Below are positions 33,286-63,500 of a stretch of DNA of 64,000 bases, one piece after another. Source of the DNA: an uncultured Candidatus Saccharibacteria bacterium (GTDB lineage: Bacteria > Patescibacteriota > Minisyncoccia > Phycocordibacterales > CAIJYI01); contig CAYPFT010000001.1 of NCBI GenBank assembly GCA_964410165.1, forward strand, positions 38,341 through 102,340, given 5' to 3'. The notes below the pieces were generated by a model. That model had not been told where the DNA came from. It worked only from the letters and a program-made list of their open reading frames with translations, and did no database searches. The stretch's first letter is position 1. Every line of letters starts with the position of its first letter. A program made the translations under genes and the position numbers.

Positions 33286-33307
33286 CTCGCAATGCTCGAA
33301 ACTTGAA

Positions 33308-33535
33308 TAGGACTTACGCACTGTTGCGACAGCGTACGGTTTCGGCGAGGAATTTTGGTCGGTTTCTCCGCCTCTTGGCGGTGGAACCGCCAAAATTCAG
33401 CGCTGAAATCGAAGATTTGGCGGAGAGACCGCCAAAAGGGCGCGACCTGATTTTCTTGAGCGAAGCGATTAGAAAATGGAAGTACCCGTGTGGCAGACTC
33501 ACCGACCAAATCTTTCCCCAGTGCGTAAGTCCTAT
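33308..33535 (-). mobile_element. Family-1 MITE, copy C (~228 bp, inverted relative to copies A and B), ending 9 nt before the tatD start
   Basis: taggacttacgcactgttgcgacagcgtacggtttcggcgaggaattttggtcggtttctcc ... gactcaccgaccaaatctttccccagtgcgtaagtcctat. Confidence 0.7.
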
Positions 33536-33543
33536 TGAATATC

Positions 33544-38210: not shown

Positions 38211-38279
38211 CGCAATGCCGAGCAGATTGACGCAGAGCAAAAAATGCGCTAAAGTCATGGTTGCGGCGTAATGTATCAA

Positions 38280-38405
38280 ATAGGACTTACGCACTTGGAT
38301 GAGATTCGAGGCGAAACAAGGGTTTTTACGGAGATGTACTAACAGTACATTGACGGGAAAACCCGATGTTTCAACGACGAAGATCGCCAAATGCGTAAGT
38401 CCTAT
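38280..38405. mobile_element. Family-1 MITE, copy D (126-bp minimal copy) between rplP and rpmC inside the ribosomal operon
   Basis: ataggacttacgcac ... gtgcgtaagtcctat termini identical to the other copies; the internal sequence is unrelated. Confidence 0.65.
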
Positions 38406-38419
38406 CAAAATCAAAATCA

Positions 38420-38894: not shown

Positions 38895-39012
38895 TAAAGT
38901 AAAAATTGAAAACGAAAAATGAAAAACGAAAATCCAAAAGTAAAAACCGCTCGGACTTTTTAATTTTTTCTTGTCGTTTTTAGATTTTCATTCTTCAATT
39001 TTAATTCGCACC

Positions 39013-39384: not shown

Positions 39385-39470
39385 GAACATAAGACATGAA
39401 TCATGGAACATGAAACAAGCAAAGTGACAGATTGATTTATGTTTTATGATTTATGGTTTATGAATAACCC

Positions 39471-41233: not shown

Positions 41234-43381
<2,148 letters not shown>

Positions 43382-43466
43382 GAAAAGAATCAGGAATAGG
43401 GAATCACGAATAGAGAAAAACCCCTCCGATGGATATCGGAGGGGTTTGGCGGATACGGGGAATGTT

Positions 43467-47229: not shown

Positions 47230-47503
47230 CCCTATAGCTAATTCTAGCATATGCCACTTAGCCGGATTAATTTGGTTGATAATCAACTCGGATTGCAGGT
47301 AATGTGCCTCGTACACCGGCTTCTTCTCTCCTCAAAACGAACGATTTTAAGCTCGCAACACGATGATTTCGCATGTATTTTTTTTATACACGCGAATTGT
47401 TTCAAAAAAACGAAAAAAATGCTTACGCTACCGAACTAAAACGACTACGCTATCAACCAAATTAATCCGGCTATTACGCATATGCTAGAATTAGCTATAG
47501 GGG
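47230..47503. mobile_element. Family-3 MITE (~274 bp) with ~50-bp terminal inverted repeats
   Basis: ccctatagctaattctagcatatgc ... gcatatgctagaattagctataggg (25/25 perfect), extended by ccggattaatttggttgata / tatcaaccaaattaatccgg. Confidence 0.7.
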
Positions 47504-51379: not shown

Positions 51380-51860
51380 AAACGGATATGCCAGTAAAAA
51401 CAAAAACCGACTGATGCCGGTTTTTGCGCCAAACTTGGTGGAGATGGGGGATCGGTCACAAGTATTTTTTCTGACAAAAAATCTTGCGACCCCGGCTCGC
51501 GGTTTTTGCCTTGTGCTTCGCACAAACAAAAACATCGCTGCGCCTTTCAATCCCCCCACGTGAGCAAAGCAGTTTGCTCACTCATCTCCACAACTCAAAA
51601 CAACAAACCGCCCTAAATCGGGCGGGTTGTTTTGGCTGTGGAGATGGGGGGAATCGGTCACAGATAAATTTTTGTTGCTACAAAAATTTTCCGCGACCCC
51701 ACCTCGGCTGTTTTGTCGCTTGCGAGCGATAAAACATGCCTGCGGTTTTCGATTCCCCACGGAAGCCAAGCAGTTGGCTTCCTCCATCTCCACCGAATTT
51801 TGGCAAAACAAAAACCGACTGATGCCGGTTTTTGCGCCAAAATTGGTGGAAACTAATGAA
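51380..51860. repeat. Array of degenerate repeats derived from the ssrA 3' end (old att remnants) plus 45-bp direct repeats
   Basis: tggagatggggg(g)a(a)tcggtcaca occurs at 51438 and 51643. Inverted ...catctccac... occurs at 51585 and 51784. ~110-bp diverged repeats lie at 51484-51595 and 51690-51800. The 45-bp direct repeat aaaacaaaaaccgactgatgccggtttttgcgccaaaNttggtgga lies at 51393 and 51804. Confidence 0.6.
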
Positions 51861-52175
51861 TGACGTTAGAACCTATATTCTGGAACCAGATGTGTGCTCT
51901 TCCCTTAAGATCGTTCAATCGTGGTAATGGTTGAGGGACACTAGAATCACTTGAGTGGGTAGTTTACACTCTCGGTTGGTATTTCTACCACTTTGAATAG
52001 AACCACCATCACATCCTACTCTCCAGGATGTTAACTATGTTAATGACATTCATTAACTGAATAAAAAAAATAGGCCTGAAAAAGTGCCTATGGGGTAACG
52101 GATACTTTTCGCGAGATTTATCCGGATTCTTTGTTTGAGTCCATTCCGGACAAGGGGTATAATGATATTGACACC

Positions 52176-53489
52176 ATGCCTCTATCCACTACTGATATAA
52201 AAGATTTATTTGTTTCTTTAGAACCAAGGGAAGATTGGTCATTTCGTGATGTTGGGAGATCTCAGACTACGGCCTTTACTCATGACTATCACCGGTATCC
52301 GGCAAAGTTTATCCCCCAAATCGTGAAGAAACTTATAGAAGATTATGCTCCAAGTGGGACTCAGGTTGTTTGCGATCCTTTTGGTGGATGTGGCACTACT
52401 CTTGTGGAAGCAAAAATGTTGGGTCACAAGAGTATTGGATTTGATATAAATCCAGTTGCGAAGTTGATAACTCAAACAAAGACCACTCCAATCAAACCAA
52501 GAACTCTCACTAATTACAGAAGTAAATTCTTGGAGGATTATGATAATGCTCCCACGGTATCGTATGAACACCACCCCAGGATTGGATACTGGTTTGAGCC
52601 AGATATGGTTCGAGAGCTGGACAGAATATATTTTGCTATAAAGGAAATAAAAAACCACAATGTTAGAAGGTTCTTCTTGTGTTCTTTTTCACACAACTTG
52701 AAAAATTGCTCGCGTTGGTTAATGAAAAGTATTAAACCAACTATTGATAAGGAAAAAGTGCTACCTAATCCAAAAGCGACATTCTTGCGTCATCTTGATT
52801 CGATGATACGAAAGAATGAGCAGTTTTACACTTCGTTAGTTCAGTCTAAGTACACGAATGTCCCAGCGAAAATGTACAGGAGGGATTCGACAAAGAAGTT
52901 TCCTCTGGAAACAAATTCTGTAGACCTCATTATTACATCACCACCTTATGTCACTTCATACGAATACGCTGATTTACATCAGCTATCTTTGCTCTGGTTT
53001 GGGGATGACCCGAAGCATTTCAAGAAGTGGCATCATTTTAGCAAAGAGTTCATAGACTTCAGAAGGACTTTCATAGGCACTAGCTCAAAGGCAGAAAAAA
53101 GGGGCGAGTTCGACAGTGAGATAGGCAATCAAATAGTGAATGCGTTAATGTCTGTGGAGCGACCTTTGGCGATTGATGTTGCGAATTACTTTTTGGATAT
53201 GAAGAAGGTTTTTGCAGAAATGCATAGAGTGTTAAAGCCAGGAGGCAAGGCGTGCATCATAATCGGAAATACAAATCTGCGCGGTGTAGAGATTTCCAAT
53301 GCTCAGGTTACTGCAGAGCAAATGCAAGTTGCTGGGTTTAAAAAACTCGATTTCATCAAGCGGGAAATACCCAACAAGATGATTACTCCCTGGAGAGATT
53401 TAGACAGTGGCAAGTTCACCGGCAAGGATAATCCTTCAAAAACTAGAGCTTATGAGTTTGAGTATGTTGTTGTGATGGAAAAAGTTTAG
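52176..53489 (+). CDS. DNA amino-methyltransferase (N6-adenine or N4-cytosine; motif I DPFGGCGTT, motif IV SPPY)
   Basis: CDPFGGCGTTLVEA SAM motif and IITSPPYVTSYEY catalytic motif. Start chosen at MPLSTT, 11 nt after a TATAAT. Confidence 0.8.
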   Translation: MPLSTTDIKDLFVSLEPREDWSFRDVGRSQTTAFTHDYHRYPAKFIPQIVKKLIEDYAPSGTQVVCDPFGGCGTTLVEAKMLGHKSIGFDINPVAKLITQTKTTPIKPRTLTNYRSKFLEDYDNAPTVSYEHHPRIGYWFEPDMVRELDRIYFAIKEIKNHNVRRFFLCSFSHNLKNCSRWLMKSIKPTIDKEKVLPNPKATFLRHLDSMIRKNEQFYTSLVQSKYTNVPAKMYRRDSTKKFPLETNSVDLIITSPPYVTSYEYADLHQLSLLWFGDDPKHFKKWHHFSKEFIDFRRTFIGTSSKAEKRGEFDSEIGNQIVNALMSVERPLAIDVANYFLDMKKVFAEMHRVLKPGGKACIIIGNTNLRGVEISNAQVTAEQMQVAGFKKLDFIKREIPNKMITPWRDLDSGKFTGKDNPSKTRAYEFEYVVVMEKV

Positions 53490-55774
53490 TCTTCTCCAAG
53501 TTGCTCTGCTCTATTGGTGAAAGAAAGGTCAAGAATAAACTTGCTTATAGCTTTAAGTGAGTTGGGAATTGCCCAATCTCGTTTGTCGGGCTCATTTTTC
53601 ATTTCAAAAAACATTGCAATAGCATAAAGATAAATGCTGGCGAAAAATCGTTTTTGGATCGTAGACATCATATCTCCAGATGCATACTTTGGATTTCTTT
53701 TTGGAAATTCAATAAGTACGTCGGGTTCTTTATTTATGTAGACTGTAATTCCTTCTTGGTCTTCCACAACCTCAGCGATATCAACTCCAGTCCATCGTTT
53801 ACCAGATGGCGAAGCCCAGTCTTCTTTTGTCCAGTCTTCTTTGGGAATATATTTTCTTTCCGGGAGTTTAAGGGCAAGTTTTGTCGGCTGTTTTGGAGTA
53901 CCAGGCTTTCCTACATGCGGTTCTTCAAATTCACCTATGATTATTTTCAGCTCAACTTTGAGTGATTCCTGATTTGGTCGTGTAAGTTCAAAAGTCACAG
54001 TGTCGGTTTCTCCCGGTTTTGCGCCTTTGGCTGGTTCAATACGAATAGGCAAGAAGCCGTCTTTTAATGAATACTGATTGATTTGAACCAATTTTGATGC
54101 TGTCCAGCGAAACTCACCGCTGTCTTTGGTTCGTATGAGGTAGTCATTCTGCGCGTCTGTTTTTATTCTCAATCGAGCGTAACGATTGAAAGGAATTGTT
54201 TTTTCATTCTCCTTGAGTTCAAAGAATGTAGGTATGTATTCTCCTTTGTATTCTTTTTTATTTTGTCCCTCGGGTCTCTCTGTGGGCACCTCTTCTCCCA
54301 CATTCAAGAGTGAAGCAAGAAAAGGATTGTCTTTAACCAATCGACCTATATAACGTGATAGGTCTTGGTCTTCTGGTTGAGCATTCTTAAGTTTTCTTTC
54401 TTTGTACTCGCGATTTAACTCTTTCAGTGTTTCATCACCTTTAATAGAGTCAATGAGTCGTTGTTCAAATTCTTCTCTCTCCGGTATGTCAATGAGTCCA
54501 CTTCTTGCAGTATGGAAAACCTTGTTTGCTTCGTGGCTTGCGTTTGATAAATCAATGTGGATTGTCATGAACGGGGCGAGGTCTGGTAACAAGCACTCTG
54601 TTTTTAGAAAGTTTACGGAGTATGTATGTTGAGCTTGTCCGTTCACAGTTAGAAAGACTTTTTCTGTCTGGCTCTTATATGATTTCCCCTGCTCACTCTC
54701 ATCATTGAGAATGACTATTTCAATATTTCTTAACCCAAAAATACCTAACTCTGCTTTGAGCGGTAACACTTGGCGAACAATCTCCTTATCTGAAAATTGT
54801 TTTTTTAGAAGTCTCCAAAGACCGTAGATTCTCGTGACTTTATTTTTATCGGAATAACCTCGAAGCTGAGTACGAAGCTCGTTTATTTGAATTGGCAATG
54901 GCATTGAGAAGTACCTCTTGTTGATTTCACGAGCTAATTCTTTTTCTCTTTGACCGGTTATGAAAAGGTTGCTATTTCTAAGAGCGTAACTATATAGACG
55001 AACAAAACTTCCACTCTCAAAGCTACCCCCATCTGGCAAGATTTTAAGAGGTTCAAAAGGAATGGATGGTACATTGTTGTCTACAACGCAGTATTCATAG
55101 CGTTCTGCCTTAAATCCGGGTTCGTACCATTCACGGACTAGTGAAAATCCCCAAAGATCTTCTGCGCCGTTTTTTATATTTGGAGCTCGTCGTGAGAGAA
55201 CGAGTTGATACCCATTCCCACAGAACTTCAAAGCGGCGGAACCTCCTTGGTTGTATACACCATGAGCGAATTTTATCCTGATTTTATTTGAGCCACCTAT
55301 TGAAAGAAATGTTTTTGGAAAATCGTTCGGGTGTTGTCCTTCACCAGAGTCGAACACTGATATTGTTGGTTTGTCAGGAGAGCCCTCACCAGTTATACGA
55401 ACAGTCTTTAGGGCAATTTCTCGTACTTCTTTATCAGATAAGTCAAAGTCTGCGATTTTTTTACCAAAGAATTGTTTTATTGCTTCTCCCTGGCTTTGCG
55501 GAGCTGACGGTGAGGTAGGATCTATTCCGGTGTCCAAACAGAATCTAACTAATAGCGCATCGATTCCATTTGTAATTTTCTCAACCAAAGCACCAATGGG
55601 ATCTGGTGCTTGAGCCTTGATAGTTCCAGCATTGTTTTCCTGTCCGCCGTACGGTACCCATTTGCAAGTTTTGAAAAACGGGTGTGTGCTAATCAATTCC
55701 GTGACCTTTTCTTGGCTGGTCGCTTTTATGAGTTCCAAGAGAACATCTTTATTTAGCTTTTGTTGAGGAGTCAT
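53486..55774 (-). CDS. Large (762 aa) uncharacterised protein with N-terminal GHKL/MORC-like ATPase motifs; candidate restriction/defence partner of the methyltransferase
   Basis: Bergerat-fold motifs ALVEKITNGIDAL (ExxxNxxDA) and ISVFDSGEGQ (DxGxG); a glycine-rich segment KFAHGVYNQGGSAALKF follows. Convergent with the MTase gene, with 4-nt overlapping ends. Start chosen at MTPQQK, which follows the stop of the small upstream ORF by 4 nt. Confidence 0.5.
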   Translation of the reverse strand: MTPQQKLNKDVLLELIKATSQEKVTELISTHPFFKTCKWVPYGGQENNAGTIKAQAPDPIGALVEKITNGIDALLVRFCLDTGIDPTSPSAPQSQGEAIKQFFGKKIADFDLSDKEVREIALKTVRITGEGSPDKPTISVFDSGEGQHPNDFPKTFLSIGGSNKIRIKFAHGVYNQGGSAALKFCGNGYQLVLSRRAPNIKNGAEDLWGFSLVREWYEPGFKAERYEYCVVDNNVPSIPFEPLKILPDGGSFESGSFVRLYSYALRNSNLFITGQREKELAREINKRYFSMPLPIQINELRTQLRGYSDKNKVTRIYGLWRLLKKQFSDKEIVRQVLPLKAELGIFGLRNIEIVILNDESEQGKSYKSQTEKVFLTVNGQAQHTYSVNFLKTECLLPDLAPFMTIHIDLSNASHEANKVFHTARSGLIDIPEREEFEQRLIDSIKGDETLKELNREYKERKLKNAQPEDQDLSRYIGRLVKDNPFLASLLNVGEEVPTERPEGQNKKEYKGEYIPTFFELKENEKTIPFNRYARLRIKTDAQNDYLIRTKDSGEFRWTASKLVQINQYSLKDGFLPIRIEPAKGAKPGETDTVTFELTRPNQESLKVELKIIIGEFEEPHVGKPGTPKQPTKLALKLPERKYIPKEDWTKEDWASPSGKRWTGVDIAEVVEDQEGITVYINKEPDVLIEFPKRNPKYASGDMMSTIQKRFFASIYLYAIAMFFEMKNEPDKRDWAIPNSLKAISKFILDLSFTNRAEQLGED

Positions 55775-55781
55775 CTTTTTA

Positions 55782-56000
55782 TAGTTTAAAGTCCCGTCTC
55801 TTGGGGAAGTGGAATTTTGCTTTTGTGTTTCTGACATTTCGTTCTATTTCGGAAAAGATTTTGTTTATCTCGTCTTCAGTGTAGTCGTAAACACTCCTGT
55901 TCGCACAGTTTCCAAGAACCTTAAGACGTTTTAAGACCATGTTCGTCCGGAGAGTGGCGAGTCTTACAAAACGATCTCGATTTGTTTCTTTTCCTTTCAT
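55782..56000 (-). CDS. Small basic ORF translationally coupled to the large GHKL-like gene
   Basis: 73 aa. Its stop lies 4 nt before the ATG of the large gene. TATAAA lies directly upstream of its own ATG. Confidence 0.3.
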
Positions 56001-56343
56001 ATTTTTTATACTACAAGGGTTGTTTTATATTTGCAAGGGCGTAACGTATTTATGTAGGGTAGCTTATACATGAGTAAAAGTAAAGTCAAGAAAGCAGAAA
56101 GTGGAATTTTACTTTCAGGGGGGAAGGTAATACCATGTAAATACAACTGAATATCGTGCTCGAAAGAGCTAGGACCTAAACCAGTAGATTTGTCTCTGGC
56201 ATGGTCTCAAATCGTTGAGGATAGAAAACCCGTCATTCAGGGCGTCCTCAACGTTATAGGGGGAAACTCCTATAGGGCCGCAAGGCCTCCTGGTGGCGGG
56301 TTTTGTGTATCCCACCAGGAATTATCAATTAACAAAATTAGAT

Positions 56344-56571
56344 ATGACTGGTGCAATAAAATACAACATCATAGGTCTTTGGGTAGTGGTCGTTGGATTG
56401 GCGTTTATGACACTGAGTGGATTAAGTAGTTCTCGAAGTCAGTTCGAGCAACTCAAGAATGCTCTGCGAGCACAGGAAAGTTTTAATAACTCACTTGTTC
56501 AACAGTTGAATTTGCAGGGTGCTGTGAACGAAAACCTACTGAATTTCGATGGAGCGATCATCAACCAGTAA
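56344..56571 (+). CDS. Small membrane protein, hypothetical
   Basis: MTGAIKYNIIGLWVVVVGLAFMTLSGL TM segment, 75 aa. Confidence 0.25.
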   Translation: MTGAIKYNIIGLWVVVVGLAFMTLSGLSSSRSQFEQLKNALRAQESFNNSLVQQLNLQGAVNENLLNFDGAIINQ

Positions 56572-57005
56572 GTGCACGAAGTTCACACATTCACAATAAT
56601 ATGAAAGAAAGAGAGACGAACAACTCATCGGGGATTATTGCAATTTTTATATTACTGCTGATTCTTGTTCTTTGGTCGTTGACTTGGGATACGGATGAAG
56701 AGCAAGAGCCGTCAGTTCTTGATTCTCCAGAGTTCTTTCAAGAAATGTATGAGCTTGGCGGAGGGCAAATCAAAGAATAGTTTTAGCTTCTCTGGCAACC
56801 TCACTCTTTTTGGACATCTCAAATCAAAAGTAAAGAAACTGGGCACGGAGTGCTTCTGGGGGTAATCGATTAAGGGGATGGACACATCAAGTGTGCTCTG
56901 TGACATCACGGGCACATCTGAGACACTTTCGGTGGGTTGGTAATGGTATCTATCATCTAAAGTTGCTTTCTACCAATACGGCATGGTTTCCGTTAAAATT
57001 GAAGA

Positions 57006-57683
57006 ATGACTCAGGGCAAAATAGAACCAAGACTGCTCGATGAGCTTGAGCGTCTCTTCCAGCGTGAATCTTTTGGTATCGAAGTCATTTTGAAAAGGGC
57101 TAAAATCGGGATTCCTATTCTGGATGGTTTTGAATCCAACCAGAAGTATCTTTCTTGGCTGAAAACACACAAAGATAGATTTTTTGATATTCAGTCAGCA
57201 AGAGCGGACTTAGCTCGAAAGTTTAAGCTACCTCTCCCTCACTCTCAATGGATTGAAGGGTATTTGCTACTTGGAAAAAAGTTTAAGGATTTTGATACAA
57301 CTATCCCTTTTGGGATGTCATTTTCTCGTGGATGGGATAAGGCGGGTTTTTCGTGTGCATTTGAATTTGATAAAGATGAAGAATGCGTCAACATTAAGAT
57401 TCTTCCGGGGGCAAGTTATCGGGATGTGAGTAAATTCATTCGTGATAATAAGGGTGAGATTGAGAAGGCGTTGAGCTCATTTAAGCATAGAGTAGTGCCC
57501 ATTCGAGTACGGAGTCAAAAAGAGCGTGATGAACTTGTTTATGCTTGCTACAAGAAGGGGTTATTGGATCGGTATGGGAGAGATAAGACTTCTGATGGTG
57601 TTTGGCTTCCAGATGAGATTTTGAATATGGATATGGATATGCGACGGAAAATCATTGAGCAACAAATCACATTGAGAAGTTAA
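57006..57683 (+). CDS. Hypothetical island protein
   Basis: 225-aa ORF. No motif recognised. Confidence 0.4.
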   Translation: MTQGKIEPRLLDELERLFQRESFGIEVILKRAKIGIPILDGFESNQKYLSWLKTHKDRFFDIQSARADLARKFKLPLPHSQWIEGYLLLGKKFKDFDTTIPFGMSFSRGWDKAGFSCAFEFDKDEECVNIKILPGASYRDVSKFIRDNKGEIEKALSSFKHRVVPIRVRSQKERDELVYACYKKGLLDRYGRDKTSDGVWLPDEILNMDMDMRRKIIEQQITLRS

Positions 57684-57926
57684 GTGTAAACGCTTAACGG
57701 TTTATCGCGGGACTTCCGTTTTCTTTAGACTGCCTGGTGTAAGGCAGTTTTTTTATGGCATTCACACAAAGGTCGATTCAAAACTTCAAGCGGTTGTATC
57801 TCCAAGAATTCGAGGAGGAGCTTTCGGATGCGGAAGCAGAACGGAGGGCGGGATATCTCCTAGAAGTTTATAGGGTCGTCTTTGGACTGCCAAGCGTAGA
57901 GACGTTCTTTGACAACAAAATAGACG

Positions 57927-58478
57927 ATGAGAAAGCAAAGTGAGCTAGTCACTATCTGGGAGAGTGTGTCGATTATTCCCGGATGGTTGCGGTTGCTGTG
58001 GATGACGAAGCAGTACTCGGATGAGGAACTGGATGAGTTGGAACAGATTGATGATGAGTTTCGTGCTTTTTCCAGAGAGGAGGAAATCAAACATCGGAAG
58101 TGGTTGCGGGAGAATCTCCCTCGGACTACAGATGGGTGGTTGAAGATTTTTCCAGAGGCAGAGAAACTCATCCCTCGGAAGAAACGGAAGAATCAACGGA
58201 GATTCGAGGAGATGCTGGAAGTAGCGAGGGATGTGGACTTGGAGGATGTGGTATCGGAATACGTCGATTTGCGACGGGGCGGTACGCATCGGTTGGTCGG
58301 GCTATGTCCATTCCATGCAGAGAAGACACCCTCATTCGTTGTGTTCACGGATAACCCCCACTACTACTGTTTTGGGTGTCATGAGCATGGGGATGTCATT
58401 ACATTCGTGAGAAAAATTAAAAACTTAAAATTCAAAATGGCTGTGCTGGTGCTGTATAGGTACTCACAGCAAGATTAA
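57927..58478 (+). CDS. CHC2 zinc-finger protein (DnaG-primase-type zinc-binding domain only)
   Basis: VSEYVDLRRGGTHRLVGLCPFHAEKTPSFVVFTDNPHYYCFGCHEHGDVITFV matches the primase CHC2 finger. The start may be at the internal ATG at 58002. Confidence 0.6.
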   Translation: MRKQSELVTIWESVSIIPGWLRLLWMTKQYSDEELDELEQIDDEFRAFSREEEIKHRKWLRENLPRTTDGWLKIFPEAEKLIPRKKRKNQRRFEEMLEVARDVDLEDVVSEYVDLRRGGTHRLVGLCPFHAEKTPSFVVFTDNPHYYCFGCHEHGDVITFVRKIKNLKFKMAVLVLYRYSQQD

Positions 58479-58482
58479 AAAT

Positions 58483-60168
58483 ATGAGCAAGAAAAAAGAA
58501 AAAGAAATTGTGGAAAAGAAATCCATTGATCAAATTGCAGAAGAGGAGAAAACAAAGAATGAGAATCCTACTCCACCAAATGAAGCAGATACGGCTGATG
58601 GTGAAGATGTTGAGTGGCCGGGTGTGTCGTGCATTCTGCAAGACGGGTCATTAGTCGAGATGTTGCATGATTCGGTAAAGCGGACTACTAAGTTGGCGGT
58701 GTATAAAGACGGCAAAGTAAGTCTTGAGGATAGCGTGCGGTTCGATGATAGGACGGTGTTTAAGCCATTAGCTCCCAATCAAAGTCTTCTTGAGACTGGG
58801 TACATTTTGTTTCCTTCGGAGGTCGGAGATTATCAAAGTAATGAAGCCCTGTATTACGAAGTGAGAGCGTTCGTAGATAAATATGTGCAACTTCAAAATG
58901 AGTTTCTCTCGGTCGTTGCAGTCTACATCATGATGAGTTGGGTATACGACAAGTTTAGGAGCGTTCCCTATCTGCGAGTGACAGGTCTCTGGGGAAGCGG
59001 AAAATCTAGATTGTTGTCGGTGGCGGGAAATCTCTGTTACAAGACGGTGATGGCGGGCGGGTCAATCAGTAATGCGGCTTTGTTCAGGACTCTTGATTTG
59101 GTGAAGCCAACTCTTGTGTTTGACGAAGCCGAACTTAACGAAAAAGAGTCAACTGAAATGCGGATGGTTCTACGGCAGGGCTACAGTGCGGGTACTCCGG
59201 TTTCGCGGATGGAGAAGTTACCAAACGGAAAGATGTATATCCAAACATTCGATGTCTTTGGTCCAAAGATTATCGCTTCTTTGGCTCGATTCCATGATGT
59301 TGCTCTTGAAAGTCGATGTCTCACAGGTTGGATGCCTCCACACATGGATAGTGGAAGACCCATTGAGTTAACCAAAGCATTCAAGGAGGAAGCGTTGGCA
59401 TTGAGGAATAAACTTCTGATGTTCAGGTTTAAGAATCATCATCTGATGAGTGCGGACGAGAGTGCGTTGGGAGGGATAAGTCTTCCTCGGTTGAAGCAGA
59501 CGGGACTTGCGGTGATGAGCGTGGCGAAAATGCTTGGGGTACAACCAATCGAAGATGTAAAGAAGTTTCTGGTTGAGTACGAACAAGAACTCGGTATTGA
59601 GCAAGCAGACTCGGTAGAAAATGACATTCTACTCTGCGTGTTAGATCTTCTTACCCAACCAGGAATCAGGTATGCGGGCAAAATTCGTACGGGTGTGGAC
59701 TTGGCGGAGAAGTTCAACAATCTTCACTATGAAGACTACTCAAACAGGGAGACGAAAGAGTACAACTCTAGTTCGATGGGGGTGATGAAGTATCCGGGGT
59801 CAAAAGTGTCTGCGAAGAAAATCGGTTGGTATGTGCGGAAGATGGGCTTTCGAGTGGATAGAGATGCCCGGGGCTTCTACATCTCTATTGTGAAGGAGTA
59901 TCCAAAGATTCGGTTGCTGGCGAAGCGGTACGGGCTTGATTCTCTATTCGAGCTTCCAGAGGGCAATCTCAACGGAGTGAAGCGAGTCGTGGACGCTGCT
60001 ACTAAGGCACAAAATTTGAAGGCGCAGGAAGAGCGGAAGCAAAAGAGGGAGCTTGAAGAGAAACGGAAGAAAGAGGCGGAGGAGAGGGAGCGAAATCGTA
60101 AACCAATGTCAGATGAAGAATACAAGGAGATCTTTGGAGAGAACTCTCTACCTAAAGATACTCTTTGA
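58483..60168 (+). CDS. P-loop NTPase, putative replication/primase-associated ATPase of the island
   Basis: Walker A VTGLWGSGKSRLL and Walker B PTLVFDEAE. C-terminal K/E-rich tail. Confidence 0.45.
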   Translation: MSKKKEKEIVEKKSIDQIAEEEKTKNENPTPPNEADTADGEDVEWPGVSCILQDGSLVEMLHDSVKRTTKLAVYKDGKVSLEDSVRFDDRTVFKPLAPNQSLLETGYILFPSEVGDYQSNEALYYEVRAFVDKYVQLQNEFLSVVAVYIMMSWVYDKFRSVPYLRVTGLWGSGKSRLLSVAGNLCYKTVMAGGSISNAALFRTLDLVKPTLVFDEAELNEKESTEMRMVLRQGYSAGTPVSRMEKLPNGKMYIQTFDVFGPKIIASLARFHDVALESRCLTGWMPPHMDSGRPIELTKAFKEEALALRNKLLMFRFKNHHLMSADESALGGISLPRLKQTGLAVMSVAKMLGVQPIEDVKKFLVEYEQELGIEQADSVENDILLCVLDLLTQPGIRYAGKIRTGVDLAEKFNNLHYEDYSNRETKEYNSSSMGVMKYPGSKVSAKKIGWYVRKMGFRVDRDARGFYISIVKEYPKIRLLAKRYGLDSLFELPEGNLNGVKRVVDAATKAQNLKAQEERKQKRELEEKRKKEAEERERNRKPMSDEEYKEIFGENSLPKDTL

Positions 60169-60508
60169 GGAAGTTAACTTCGTTCACATCGTTAATGTGG
60201 GGGTGAGGGTAAGTCATACTCTCACCCCTCTTAGCGTGTGTGCGAATCTACCCAAAGTTGTTAACACTTTTTTGGGATTATTAACCTATACATATATAGA
60301 ATAATGTGGTATAATATATTTATGAAAATAAAGTATCTAAGCCATATTTTCTAATCTTGTATGGATTTCGAGTCACTCAAAGATTGTGTAATCGTAGACA
60401 TGATTGAGAAAGTCAAAAAAATGACTCGGGATGAGCTTGAGAGTCGTGTGATCGATTTTGAATCTCGAAAAATCGAAACTCTCAAAACCTTAAATGAGGT
60501 AATAGATT

Positions 60509-62200
60509 ATGGAAACAAAAACAAAACTTAGATATGTAGCGTATGCTCGTAAGTCGACTGACCAGGAAGAAAAACAAATCACTTCCATTGAAGATCAGTT
60601 GCGGGAAATTGAGCGGATAGGTGCTGATTGTCACATTACAAAGAAACTCACGGAAAAACGGACTGCTAAAACTCTGGGTCGTCCTGTTTTTGCTGAAATG
60701 TTGCAGTTGATTCTGGATAAGAAAGTAGACGGGATTGTTTGCTGGAAGCTGAATCGGTTAGCAAGAAATCCAATAGATGGAGGGCAGATAATCTGGATGT
60801 TGCAAAATGGGGTTATCAAAGAAATCAGGACTGATGATGGTATCTACACTCCAGAGAGTGACATGATAATGCTTCACATCCACTTCGGGATGGCTCATCA
60901 GTTCAGTTTGAATCTCAGTAAGGACATCAAGAGAGGTTTACAGGGTCGTCTTCGTGAGGGAGTTCGTCCAAGTATTGCTCCTATCGGGTACATAAACAGT
61001 CAGTATCACATCAAGAGGATGGAAGAAATCTTGGTTGATGAGGAGCGGTTCCCAAAAGTAAGAAAGTTATTCGATTTAATGCTTTCTGGACAATACTCTC
61101 CTCTCCAGTTGGTTGAGATTGCGGATAAGCAACTCCATCTGGAAACAAGGGGGACGAAGAAATGGCCGAGAAAAGCGATGAGTAAGTCAAATATGTATCG
61201 GGTTCTCACCAATCCTTTCTACTATGGGTCGTTCGAGTTTCCGGAGGGTAGCGGTGATTGGCATGTTGGTAAACATAAACCAATGATTACGGAAGAGGAG
61301 TATGACAAAATCCAATCTCTCCTTGGTCGTGAGGGTAGACCGAGACCGAAGACTCACATCTTTGCTTACACTGGATTGATGCGGTGTGCAGGTTGCCAGG
61401 CTCGCGTGACTGCTGAAGAAAAATGGAAACACCAACAGAATGGGAATAGTCACCATTACATCTACTATCGGTGTACGGGTAGTCAGGGTCCAGAGTGTTT
61501 GGAGAAGTCGGTTGAGGTGAAAGTTCTGGAAAAGCAAATTGATGAATTTCTCTCTAAGATTCAGATTCCACCAGAGTTCCATGAATGGGCTGTTGAGGAG
61601 TTGAAGAAACTCCATGAAAGAGAAAAGGGTGATAGGAACTCGCTGATTGTGAAGCATGAGCAGGACTATAAGGACTGTGTATTCAAGCTGGATCAGTTGA
61701 TGGAGCTTCGATTGGAGGGCAAGGTTTCGGATGAGATGTTCTCTCGGAAGGAATCACAACTCTTGAAGCAGAAAGCAGAATTGAAGAGATTGTCTGATGG
61801 AGATGATAAGAGAGTAGATGACTGGTTGGTTCGTCTTGAAAGCACTCTCACCTTTGCGGAGAGAGCCAGAGAGGAATTCCAAAAGGGTGATATTGCGAAG
61901 CGGAGGCAGATTCTTACTGCTTTGGGGACTGAGCATATCCTCAAAGACCGGGCAATCCACATCAATACGGAAAAACCACTCCTTGTACTTCAAGAAGTGG
62001 TTTCCGAGAGCAATCGTCTGTTAGATAAGTTAGAACCTCCCAAAAGTGTTGGAAACAATGGGCGGATTAAACAAATCTATGACAAAAGTTCATCAATGTG
62101 GAGATGGGGGGAATCGAACCCCCGTGCAAAAAGGAATTCTCGCTCCTTCTACAAACATAGATTATTTGTTTTTGGTTTAAGTGGAAAAAGTAAGGAATAA
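60509..62200 (+). CDS. Large serine recombinase (resolvase/invertase-type N-terminal domain plus recombinase and zinc-ribbon domains)
   Basis: YVAYARKSTDQEEKQITSIEDQ catalytic-serine motif. The recombinase domain (RPSIAPIGY) and CxxC...C zinc ribbon (RCAGCQA...YYRCTG...C) are both present. The 3' end reads through the ssrA terminus. Confidence 0.85.
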   Translation: METKTKLRYVAYARKSTDQEEKQITSIEDQLREIERIGADCHITKKLTEKRTAKTLGRPVFAEMLQLILDKKVDGIVCWKLNRLARNPIDGGQIIWMLQNGVIKEIRTDDGIYTPESDMIMLHIHFGMAHQFSLNLSKDIKRGLQGRLREGVRPSIAPIGYINSQYHIKRMEEILVDEERFPKVRKLFDLMLSGQYSPLQLVEIADKQLHLETRGTKKWPRKAMSKSNMYRVLTNPFYYGSFEFPEGSGDWHVGKHKPMITEEEYDKIQSLLGREGRPRPKTHIFAYTGLMRCAGCQARVTAEEKWKHQQNGNSHHYIYYRCTGSQGPECLEKSVEVKVLEKQIDEFLSKIQIPPEFHEWAVEELKKLHEREKGDRNSLIVKHEQDYKDCVFKLDQLMELRLEGKVSDEMFSRKESQLLKQKAELKRLSDGDDKRVDDWLVRLESTLTFAERAREEFQKGDIAKRRQILTALGTEHILKDRAIHINTEKPLLVLQEVVSESNRLLDKLEPPKSVGNNGRIKQIYDKSSSMWRWGESNPRAKRNSRSFYKHRLFVFGLSGKSKE

Positions 62201-62491
62201 TCAAAATCTTTCTCCACCCTAGCTTCTTTGTTTTGAAAATAAATCGAAGCGGTTTATATTTTCTATCCCGATTTGTATTACACCCGTATCCCACCCTCGG
62301 GAGAGGAGAGATAAAGACGCCGGTTTACGCTAAAGCGAATCCGGGATGAAAAGCAAAGTATGGTGATACAACGCTTTTCACCTTAGAAGAAAGTTTTGCA
62401 ACTATCAGTTTCCTGTGCGCTATAACGGGTGAACAGGAGTATCCGGTTTGCAAAGCGAGAAGACGACTTCTTGTCGAAGCCAGTCATCCCC
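62098..62491 (-). ncRNA. ssrA: tmRNA (SsrA)
   Basis: 5' end GGGGAUGACUGGCUUCGAC matches the tmRNA consensus. Acceptor pairing GGGGAUG/CAUCUCC carries G3:U70. T-arm GGGGGUUCGAUUCCCCC. Resume context GAUAGUU-GCA followed by a 24-codon tag ending FALA-UAA. Confidence 0.75.
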
Positions 62492-62502
62492 ATGTTGTTG
62501 AG

Positions 62503-62933
62503 TATCAGGGAAAGAGTATCAGTATCAGGAATTTTTATCCATTGCTGATTTTACTAAGCCGGAGATAAGTCGAATCGCGAGACGAATAGACATATTGATT
62601 TCATTGAAAGTTTCCTCATTTATAAACGCAAGGTCTTTCGCCACAAGTAATTGGCTCTCTGTTTCAAGTAATGACCCTTTTGCTATGGCGTAAAAATGCG
62701 CCTTATCTTTTGCAGAATTTCTTCCGAAGCCTTCTGCGATGTTTGAAACAATGGAAATCGAAGCTCTTCTGATTTGGTTTGTTAGACCAAACCTTTCGTC
62801 CGGAGGAAATGTTTTTGTAATCTTATAAATTACCAGCACAATTTTCTGCGCTTCTTTCCATGCTTCTAAGTCTGTAAAATTTTGAATTTTCATAATCGTT
62901 TTCGTCCCTGATACTGATACTTTCCCCTGATAC
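62503..62933. mobile_element. Inverted-repeat-flanked cassette carrying the four-helix-bundle gene
   Basis: 28-bp inverted repeats gtatcagggaaagagtatcagtatcagg (62503-62530) and cctgatactgatactttcccctgatac (62907-62933). Confidence 0.5.
62525..62893 (-). CDS. Four-helix-bundle protein of the 23S rRNA intervening-sequence (IVS) protein family
   Basis: 122 aa, DLEAWKEAQKIVLVIYKITKTFPPDERFGLTNQIRRASISIVSNIAEG...KGSLLETESQL is typical of TIGR02436. Confidence 0.7.
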   Translation of the reverse strand: MKIQNFTDLEAWKEAQKIVLVIYKITKTFPPDERFGLTNQIRRASISIVSNIAEGFGRNSAKDKAHFYAIAKGSLLETESQLLVAKDLAFINEETFNEINMSIRLAIRLISGLVKSAMDKNS

Positions 62934-62949
62934 TTAAATTATCAACGTG

Positions 62950-63390
62950 CTACCGTTTCATTTCGCGCGCCATTTCGCGTTCCGAGTCGCGTTTTTTAAT
63001 CGTCTCGCGCTTGTCGTATTTCTTTTTTCCGCGAACGATGGCGATTTCCGCTTTGATTTTCCTGCCCTTATTATACATGGATATAGGTATCACTGTCAAG
63101 CCTTTTTGCCCCTCGGCGTCGGCGAGCCTTGTTATCTCGCTTTTTTTGAGCAAGAGCCTTCTGGTGCGGTCAGGTTCGTAGCTTTTCGGGGCGTTTTTGG
63201 GCTGGAAGGCGGGGATAGAGGCGCCGATGAGGAACGCTTCACCGCCACGGACGATCACTCGCGCGCCTTCAAGAGATCCGCGCTTCATTTGCACGGATTT
63301 CACCTCGAAGCCGAGAAATTCGACCCCCGCCTCAAATTTCTCGAGGATTTCGTAGTTAAAAGAAGCTTTTTTGTTGAAGAGAAGCGACAT
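62950..63390 (-). CDS. smpB: SsrA-binding protein SmpB
   Basis: NKKASFNYEILEKFEAGVEFLGFEVKSV...DRTRRLLLKKSEI...KGRKIKAEIAIVRGKKKYDKRE. Start chosen at MSLLF; the longer ORF reaches 63561. Confidence 0.85.
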   Translation of the reverse strand: MSLLFNKKASFNYEILEKFEAGVEFLGFEVKSVQMKRGSLEGARVIVRGGEAFLIGASIPAFQPKNAPKSYEPDRTRRLLLKKSEITRLADAEGQKGLTVIPISMYNKGRKIKAEIAIVRGKKKYDKRETIKKRDSEREMAREMKR

Positions 63391-63500
63391 AGGTATATAT
63401 AGTAGCAGGGAAGCGTGGAGTTGACAAGTAATATAAACTACAGTATACTTAGCTTTAACAAATTGTTCATCGTTAATCATTTTTTTCGGAGGAAATCGCC

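Follow-up and report, generated by a model that had tools for sequence, protein, structure and literature searches.

Intervening sequences (IVSs) in rRNA have been known since about 1990. The IVS in the 23S rRNA of Coxiella burnetii is 428-444 nt long and has a 28-bp terminal stem with one mismatch and one bulge, and RNase III cuts this stem in the middle (PMC4990558). Two to four tandem GACAGAT heptamers are located right before the ATG of a sense-oriented ORF encoding S23p, a protein that is apparently not made in Coxiella (PMC4990558). The origin and mobility of rRNA IVSs and the role of S23p remain open questions (PMC4990558). The DGR protein Avd is a positively charged pentameric barrel that has been described as "similar to S23 ribosomal proteins", and in its cryo-EM structure an RNA stem-loop is touched by all five protomers, with flipped-out bases held in the inter-protomer crevices (bioRxiv 10.1101/2023.10.23.563531).

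Other insertions in stable-RNA genes have also been described. In CPR bacteria, 16S and 23S insertions are known within rRNA genes (PMC11270868), and the known variants of the tmRNA gene include group I introns and permuted genes (PMC11915505). The searchable literature treats IVSs as a peculiarity of rRNA: S23p IVSs are described only within rRNA genes, and heptamers are mentioned only for Coxiella. We found in it no IVS-type cassettes in pre-tmRNA leaders or operon spacers and no general five-heptad design, an absence that is not proof. Here, we describe a CPR locus and about 100 relatives that extend IVSs beyond rRNA. The locus lies in a 64-kb stretch of DNA, referred to below as the window. 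Homologues of its genes carry names that assign the source organism to the CPR / Patescibacteria (Paceibacterota).

An IVS-type cassette between smpB and the tmRNA gene

The gene order on the minus strand of the window is smpB, a 122-aa ORF and the tmRNA gene (Table 1). This computed order agrees with an earlier note on this DNA, which had proposed that a small cassette separates ssrA from smpB. ARAGORN placed the tmRNA gene at 62096/62098-62491 on the minus strand, and Rfam also recognised it (137.9 bits). The tmRNA was the only Rfam match at the smpB-ssrA locus, with no ribozyme fold and no rRNA location for the cassette. Measured from outer arm end to outer arm end, the cassette is 440 nt long. 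Its only ORF is the four-helix-bundle gene, and no promoter of its own was predicted within it. The immediate neighbors of the cassette are smpB, ssrA and a serine recombinase gene.

Table 1 Features of the window that belong to, or are compared with, the smpB-ssrA cassette.
Feature	Position	Strand	Description
smpB	62950-63393	-	PF01668, E 2.8e-46; host gene directly upstream of the cassette, same strand
Consensus sigma-70-type promoter, TTGACA-N18-TATAAT	63070..63099	-	within the smpB reading frame (Leu-Thr ... Tyr-Asn codons)
Upstream (5') arm	62906..62937	-	sense orientation TTAAGTATCAGGGGAAAGTATCAGTATCAGGG; GTATCAG-type units at 6-7 nt spacing
PF05635 / TIGR02436 ORF	62525..62893	-	122 aa; S23p / IVS protein family; four-helix bundle, Avd-like fold
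Downstream (3') arm	62498..62530	-	pairs with the upstream arm; 6 nt between its end and the tmRNA 5' end
ssrA (tmRNA gene)	62096..62491	-	host gene directly downstream of the cassette, same strand
ORF-less hairpin, inverted heptad array	38902..39005	+	GAAAAAY units; rpsQ-rplN spacer
ORF-less hairpin, inverted heptad array	39388..39462	+	CATGAAN units; rplN-rplX spacer
Solo array	43370..43417	+	about 7 heptads (AGTAGGA / NNGGAAT); directly 3' of the fusA stop codon

The ORF is enclosed by an inverted repeat with an exact 15-nt core (62515-62529 / 62907-62921) and an outer part that matches at 88% (62498-62513 / 62922-62937). For comparison, an exact 13-mer inverted pair within 1 kb occurred 0-3 times in shuffled windows. 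The TGA stop codon of the ORF (62525-62527) falls inside the downstream arm. On the minus-strand RNA, the arms are predicted to form a 30-bp stem with one bulged base that encloses the ORF, so that the cassette has the terminal inverted repeats and the long enclosing stem of an IVS. The predicted energy of the arm-to-arm duplex is -50.5 kcal/mol. The fold of the whole cassette reaches -129.9 kcal/mol (z = -5.5), and none of 100 shuffles was as stable.

The 28-bp inverted repeats given in the earlier note are real, but the two 28-mers differ by small indels, which appear as one bulge in the fold, and not by a single change. The distance of 12 nt to the tmRNA 5' end given there holds for its narrower definition of the repeat, and the stem base lies 6 nt away when the TTAAG/CTCAA extension is counted. 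The arms of the window cassette are irregular, with about four units of 6-7 nt and not a clean 5 x 7 pattern. Neither a second PF05635 gene nor a second GTATCAG-type array was found within the 64-kb window.

The cassette encodes a conserved Avd-like protein

The 122-aa protein matched PF05635 with 126.4 bits (cut-off 33.8; E 6.8e-37) and TIGR02436 with 118.6 bits (cut-off 24). These scores confirm its assignment to the family first found in 23S IVSs, as had been claimed. The Avd-specific models stayed below their cut-offs (NF033474, 20.5 bits vs 80; PF22296, 20.5 bits vs 40), and none of the PADLOC defence models gave a family at E <= 0.01 for this protein. An AlphaFold2 model (pLDDT 95.8) is a four-helix bundle with a fold like that of 2GSC and 2RLD. 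The predicted fold also matches that of Avd (PDB 4DWL, 8UB7), at a sequence identity of only about 8%.

In the two PDB homologues, 2gsc and 2rld, five chains are deposited in each entry. By analogy with Avd and these two crystallised homologues, the 122-aa protein is probably a homopentamer. Its likely binding sites are the arrays of its own cassette, at one protomer per heptad, which we suggest because of the homology with Avd and because the modal number of repeats is five (see below). Between the ORF of the window cassette and that of the relative L003 (Table 2), dS is 0.92 and dN/dS is about 0.07. This indicates that the ORF is under strong purifying selection and that the protein is functional.

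A putative ssrA promoter inside smpB would place the cassette in the pre-tmRNA leader

The promoter sequence inside smpB matches the consensus perfectly (Table 1). We searched for the same motif in 80 relatives and found it in 77 of them at the same distance from the smpB stop codon (61 perfect, 16 at 11/12), while the best promoter score in a control region of the same smpB genes was never above 10/12. Based on codon usage elsewhere in these genes, the four codons that the motif requires are expected to coincide in 2.3% of genes, compared with 76% observed. In many relatives, the tmRNA begins just 11 nt past the smpB stop codon.

From this sequence conservation, we infer that ssrA is transcribed from the promoter embedded in smpB. 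The cassette would then be situated in the 5' leader of pre-tmRNA and be transcribed with the stable-RNA precursor. This placement would parallel that of rRNA IVSs, which are also transcribed as part of a stable-RNA precursor. It would also mean that, in the CPR clade of the window, ssrA is apparently driven from a promoter written into the smpB reading frame.

Inverted heptad arrays are a family-wide feature

To describe the family, we collected 80 loci with 44-60% identical homologues from contigs representing one genome per species and added the closest relatives of the window cassette (84 loci in total). At each locus, the 150 nt upstream of the ORF were aligned with the reverse complement of the downstream flank. 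The controls were reverse-only and direct-orientation alignments, both of which preserve composition. They replaced a mismatched-locus control, which was contaminated since different loci share arm types. An alignment score of at least 16 was reached by 52 of the 84 loci and by none of the 84 in either control. At a score of at least 12, the count was 72 of 84, compared with 2 and 6 in the controls.

The arms across the family are not arbitrary palindromes. They are built from heptamers repeated in tandem, whose 4-nt core is, for example, GAAT, GTAT, GATT or GTAG. At lags of 7 and 14 nt, autocorrelation was 0.48-0.52 (0.49-0.52 at lag 7; about 0.27 in controls), and the best period was 7 in 63/84 loci for the upstream arm and in 65/84 for the downstream arm. 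When one core mismatch was allowed, the modal number of heptads was five in both arms (33/84 loci each), whereas ORF-internal controls peaked at two. The median arm length was 30 nt, the ATG and the stop codon were located at or inside the arrays, and the median element length between outer arm ends was 441 bp (range 411-516). No target-site duplication was found in 41 of 49 loci, and the 2-3 nt seen in the remaining loci are as expected by chance.

Inverted heptad arrays without an ORF, as well as a solo array, are also present in the window (Table 1). Further ORF-less hairpins or solo arrays were seen in relatives, in the prgI-traC spacer of L004 and in spacers of L090, L095 and L099.

The cassettes turn over at the smpB-ssrA site and occur at many other sites

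We surveyed the insertion site in 80 metagenomic loci with SmpB 58-73% identical to that of the window, and found the tmRNA directly downstream on the same strand in 70. ARAGORN alone missed most CPR tmRNAs (30/81 loci); with an nhmmer profile built on the 5' part, 71 were recovered. Among the 70 loci, 65-66 have a spacer of 3-201 nt between smpB and ssrA without a cassette. Only two (L101 and L137) carry a PF05635 cassette there, and these cassettes are only 55-56% identical to that of the window and have other heptads. Two or three of the 70 contain a small GIY-YIG gene in the spacer instead, which marks the spacer as a landing place for selfish genes.

The closest relatives of the window cassette are listed in Table 2. 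Cassettes with GTATCAG-type arms and 66-89% identical genes were found both at the smpB-ssrA site of a distant host and between a traG-like gene and the next gene. A cassette between secD and secF that belongs to this lineage has related arms of the GTATAAG type. A host with 93% identical SmpB carries a cassette with different arms at the same position. In these comparisons, cassette similarity does not track host similarity. The patchy presence in close hosts, together with this mismatch between cassette and host, indicates that the cassette moves or is exchanged over evolutionary time.

Table 2 Closest relatives of the window cassette, with the identity of host SmpB and of the cassette protein.
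Locus	Host SmpB	Cassette protein	Arms	Position
L003	94%	89%	GTATCAG type	smpB-ssrA
L175	93%	71%	different arms (GTATATG / GGATTT)	same position
L174	67%	74%	GTATCAG type, central unit mismatched between arms	smpB-ssrA
L173	smpB not adjacent	67%	as L175	between own consensus promoter and tmRNA
L004 / L007		77-78%	GTATCAG type	traG-like / next gene, type IV secretion operon
L176-L178		66%	related arms, GTATAAG type	between secD and secF

The earlier note had taken the inverted flanks as the mark of a small mobile cassette and had suggested looking for similar flanks at other sites and for relatives in which smpB and ssrA are adjacent without it. Both were found: the arms recur elsewhere, the site is mostly empty, and one close host has a different cassette. 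Uniqueness of the repeats to this locus, with the gene at the same position in all relatives, had been named there as the opposite outcome and is not what the survey returned.

Across the family, 59 of the 77 cassettes with assignable neighbors were co-oriented with both of them, 10-60 nt behind the upstream gene. Counted by Pfam family, the neighbors fall into 90 and 132 families, among them LexA, a DinB-type polymerase, FtsZ, the ribosomal proteins S2, S7 and L2, ATP synthase and pyruvate:ferredoxin oxidoreductase. The cassettes show no functional linkage with these genes. The pre-tmRNA leader hosts cassettes of at least three heptad types. No relative of the cassette was found on IMG/VR viral contigs. 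Together, the comparison with about 100 relatives suggests that IVS-type cassettes are a widespread, evolutionarily mobile element of fixed design.

Comparison with known elements

The window element matches an IVS in every testable structural respect except location. The 23S IVSs of Coxiella burnetii (helix 45), Leptospira, Xanthomonas and Brucella resemble it in size and in their bulged stem of about 28-30 bp. Their tandem heptamers also directly precede the ATG, and their PF05635 ORF also runs in the direction of the host transcript. They likewise reside in a highly expressed stable-RNA unit and occur sporadically among relatives. On an Azospirillum plasmid, a 23S rRNA gene (500.8 bits with Rfam LSU) contains a PF05635 ORF surrounded by inverted CAGAGGA/CGGAGGA heptads. 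There are also differences. The 23S IVSs sit in an rRNA helix, whereas the window cassette lies in the putative pre-tmRNA 5' leader and its relatives lie between protein genes in operons. In addition, the ORF of the Coxiella IVS is decaying and apparently untranslated, whereas the window ORF is under strong purifying selection. The earlier note had recognised the protein family and the mobile cassette, and had missed the IVS anatomy, the heptamer arrays, the promoter inside smpB and the Avd-like fold.

Several other element classes share some of these features. Group I introns of tmRNA and rRNA genes and homing-endonuclease genes are, like the cassette, selfish inserts that exploit conserved stable-RNA genes (PMC11915505; PMC11270868). 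Unlike them, the window cassette has no ribozyme fold detected by Rfam and no nuclease domain, and splicing is not needed since the insert is outside the mature RNA. MITEs and REPINs resemble the cassettes in being short, with terminal inverted repeats, in operon spacers and with ORF-less copies (the two hairpins in Table 1 and the L004 spacer). They differ in that the cassettes lack target-site duplications, have no transposase or RAYT gene in view and carry heptamer arrays in place of a single palindrome. An IS or MITE with target duplication was rejected because 41 of 49 loci lack a duplication and the window cassette contains no transposase. An integron cassette was rejected because arrays are present at both ends and single cassettes are located in housekeeping operons, and the loci with inspected gene tables showed no integron integrase. 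Membership in a DGR was also rejected because of the sub-cut-off Avd scores and the lack of an adjacent reverse transcriptase; a template and a variable repeat are likewise missing among the neighbors.

Processing and spread of the cassette

We consider it fairly probable that the window element is an IVS-type cassette, of the S23p-encoding kind, that has its place in the tmRNA precursor, within the 5' leader, and not in rRNA, that it is excised by RNase III, and that its protein binds the arrays. The cassette would be transcribed as part of pre-tmRNA, and the arms would pair into a 30-bp double-stranded RNA stem. By analogy with the experiments on rRNA IVSs, RNase III would cut this stem and separate the cassette RNA. 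This would free a pre-tmRNA with a short leader, which would then be trimmed by RNase P. Such cleavage would make the insertion harmless to tmRNA, and it would be tolerated. The protein, probably a pentamer, would bind its own heptad arrays, and this may serve expression control (for instance of translation), protection or the spread of the element. The enzyme that inserts the cassette at new sites is not encoded in the cassette. No rnc gene signature was found in the 64-kb window, which is uninformative for such a small piece of the genome.

The main rival to this reading, although the two are not mutually exclusive, is that the arms act at the DNA level and that the RNA stem is a by-product. 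The cassette would then be a small non-autonomous mobile element, with its inverted heptad arrays recognised by a machinery for recombination or transposition that is provided in trans and may act on hairpins of single-stranded DNA. We regard this as a possible but not a likely account. We compared RNA-level and DNA-level signatures in the arms. In 72 loci, G.U pairs in the sense orientation (55) were not above A.C pairs (86), so the complementarity is strictly Watson-Crick with no excess of wobble. The duplex energies of sense and antisense arms did not differ over 84 loci (-30.4 vs -30.6 kcal/mol, p = 0.6), and we therefore do not claim RNA-specific selection on the stem. Pairing reached 83% in register, and a shift of 7 nt lowered it only to 62-65%. 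Much of the complementarity is thus carried by the shared repeat unit, and the arms may be conserved as repeat arrays and not as a stem. Other observations that weigh against the main reading are the mismatched central unit of the L174 arms, direct arrays in one cyanobacterial cassette, the irregular arms of the window cassette and the apparent lack of S23p synthesis in Coxiella.

Hairpins without an ORF and solo arrays, which are present both in the window and in relatives and resemble MITE derivatives or footprints, also fit action at the DNA level, as do the patchy distribution and the replacement of cassettes at one site. However, the lack of target-site duplications and of any transposase or recombinase domain in the cassette argues against it, and rRNA IVSs are experimentally processed at the RNA level (PMC4990558). 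The hairpin in the rplN-rplX spacer also speaks against it: its sense RNA reaches -28.1 kcal/mol (z -6.7) and contains five G.U pairs, and it is stable only as sense RNA. Unlike this hairpin, the one in the rpsQ-rplN spacer is more stable in antisense. On these results, what is maintained in the arms may be the repeat arrays or sites that act in DNA, and the double-stranded RNA stem may follow from them, which is compatible with RNase III processing.

A role as a retroelement accessory appears improbable. In this scenario, a reverse transcriptase encoded elsewhere would be brought to the RNA of the excised cassette by the Avd-like protein, and the element would spread via cDNA. The Avd models are below cut-off, and no reverse transcriptase, template or variable repeat is located next to the window cassette or the other inspected cassettes. 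Ascertainment is enough to account for the bias toward the sense orientation, since an ORF stays intact only if it is expressed.

It is also quite unlikely that the cassette is a module kept for its benefit to the cell, with protein and stem controlling tmRNA maturation or amount, or neighboring genes elsewhere. The conservation of ORF and arms between the window and L003 despite a dS of about 0.9 would fit such a module, as would the recurrence of cassettes of several heptad types in pre-tmRNA leaders. Most SmpB relatives, however, manage without any insert at this site, the same cassette type occurs in functionally unrelated operons, and the spacer also receives GIY-YIG genes. Finally, an ancestral resident gene with a chance or local palindrome, such as an smpB terminator or attenuator, is hardly credible even though the GTATCAG array and the PF05635 gene occur once in the window, given that the repeats are family-wide, most relatives have no insert here, arms of the same type are present elsewhere in genomes and the arms do not have the form of a T-tract terminator.

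A possible wider class of PF05635 cassettes

The window locus and its roughly 100 relatives present this kind of element outside rRNA, with a fixed design: about 440 bp, inverted arrays of about five heptamers, an ORF under purifying selection, sense orientation in operons and no target duplication. We tentatively raise the possibility, and consider it some way from likely, that PF05635 cassettes constitute one widespread class of bacterial mobile elements that has so far gone undescribed. Such an element would combine a pentameric Avd-like protein with two arrays of about five heptads as its cognate sites, one protomer per repeat. The class would settle in strongly transcribed units, namely rRNA, pre-tmRNA and operons for ribosomal proteins and other housekeeping functions, in hosts ranging from CPR bacteria to Proteobacteria, Bacteroidota and Cyanobacteria, and would leave ORF-less hairpins and solo arrays behind, with 23S IVSs, and perhaps STRR, as special cases or footprints. 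That a pentameric RNA-binding fold goes together with arrays of about five repeats could explain why four-helix-bundle genes are dispersed in dozens of copies over Bacteroidota, Cyanobacteria and CPR genomes. For genome annotation, it matters that essential RNAs have longer leaders and spacers where such cassettes or ORF-less hairpins are present.

Cyanobacterial STRR are arrays of short tandemly repeated heptanucleotides in intergenic regions of Nostocales. PF05635 genes with the same kind of arrays as in our family were found on plasmids of Nostoc, Trichormus, Scytonema, Calothrix and Anabaena, as well as in a Riemerella record. Like STRR, these arrays consist of tandem 7-nt repeats, and a link between the two is possible, judging from a few plasmid loci and the STRR literature. 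One cyanobacterial cassette carries direct arrays instead of inverted ones.

A consensus promoter within smpB and the smpB-ssrA spacer in relatives

We compared the smpB-ssrA region of the window with loci from relatives fetched by cassette-protein or SmpB similarity (L-numbers). A consensus promoter, TTGACA-N18-TATAAT, was found inside the smpB frame, about 150 nt upstream of the smpB stop in the window, in the close relative L003 and in L090-L167. The motif recurs in 77 of 80 relatives, with 61 perfect matches, while codon usage predicts 2.3%. This is probably the promoter of ssrA in this CPR clade.

The spacer that follows was found to vary in content. Small GIY-YIG genes or their remnants were identified in the spacers of three relatives (L097 2942-3335, L119 991-1337, and L162 1889-2089; Pfam E 1e-13 and 2e-10 for the matches), so that small selfish genes of several kinds use this spacer as a landing site. 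The cassette-free spacers of L090, L095, and L099 hold a solo array of four to five CATACTT-type heptads ending about 8 nt upstream of the tmRNA 5' end. This array may be the footprint or the target of a cassette. In many relatives (L003, L107, L118, L097, and L119), a perfect hairpin was located just 5' of the tmRNA, with the first GGGG of the tmRNA falling within its 3' arm. The window has no such hairpin before its tmRNA, and the cassette stem adjoins the tmRNA there.

Cassettes and arrays at other loci

The cassette of L174, from a more distant host, lies at about 880-1400 in the smpB-ssrA spacer, and the smpB frame there terminates within the heptad array. Its 5' arm is of one type (GGGATTAG, as in L007) and its 3' arm of another (CTTTCCCC, as in the window), so that the central unit is unpaired. 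These mixed arms suggest recombination between cassette variants. Between prgI and traC, L007 itself has a PF05635 cassette that is complete and bears TTAAATGG-type arms; in L004 the spacer between these two genes contains AATTTTC-type heptads arranged as an inverted array with no ORF (2263-2481). PF05635 genes were also found between cas6 and cas4 on plasmids of Pseudanabaena galeata (L172) and Anabaena sp. 90 (L182). The arrays flanking the Pseudanabaena gene are direct, not inverted (AGCTAAA x10 and AGCCAAA x9).

Other elements in the window

In the ribosomal protein operon, two spacers are filled by ORF-less hairpins. For the rplN-rplX hairpin, only the sense RNA fold is stable, with five G.U pairs (-28.1 kcal/mol, z -6.7); for the rpsQ-rplN hairpin, the antisense RNA is the more stable strand. 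The solo array adjoining fusA is followed by a terminator-like hairpin. A tRNA-Lys(ctt) called by ARAGORN at 43210-43303 (+), within the 715-aa reading frame of EF-G (41234-43381), is a probable false positive.

The element integrated at the tmRNA 3' end has its direct-repeat copies at 62097-62116 and 51637-51656. Besides the recombinase, its cargo includes a DnaG-zinc-ribbon protein, a DNA methyltransferase, and large unknown ORFs. One copy of the small element ending in AATAGGACTTACGCA is located within the ribosomal protein gene cluster. The arms of the large inverted repeat are 25 and 23 exact nt, separated by about 200-260 nt.

Features identified in the window
Feature	Position	Strand	Remarks
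Small element, copy 1	33305-33541		237 nt; inverted termini AATAGGACTTACGCA common to both copies
Small element, copy 2	38279-38406		128 nt
ORF-less inverted heptad-array hairpin	38902-39005	+	rpsQ-rplN spacer
ORF-less inverted heptad-array hairpin	39388-39462	+	rplN-rplX spacer
Solo array	43370-43417	+	~7 heptads (AGTAGGA, NNGGAAT); directly 3' of fusA stop
Large inverted repeat	47230-47502		Between PEP-utilising enzyme gene and next ORF
Integrated element	51637-62116		~10.5 kb; bounded by 20-nt exact direct repeat of tmRNA 3' end
LOOT RNA	56173-56288	+	Rfam RF03000, 72.7 bits; within integrated element
Large serine recombinase	60509-62200		Of integrated element; overlaps tmRNA 3' end antisense
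Consensus promoter	63070-63099	-	smpB codons Leu-Thr...Tyr-Asn
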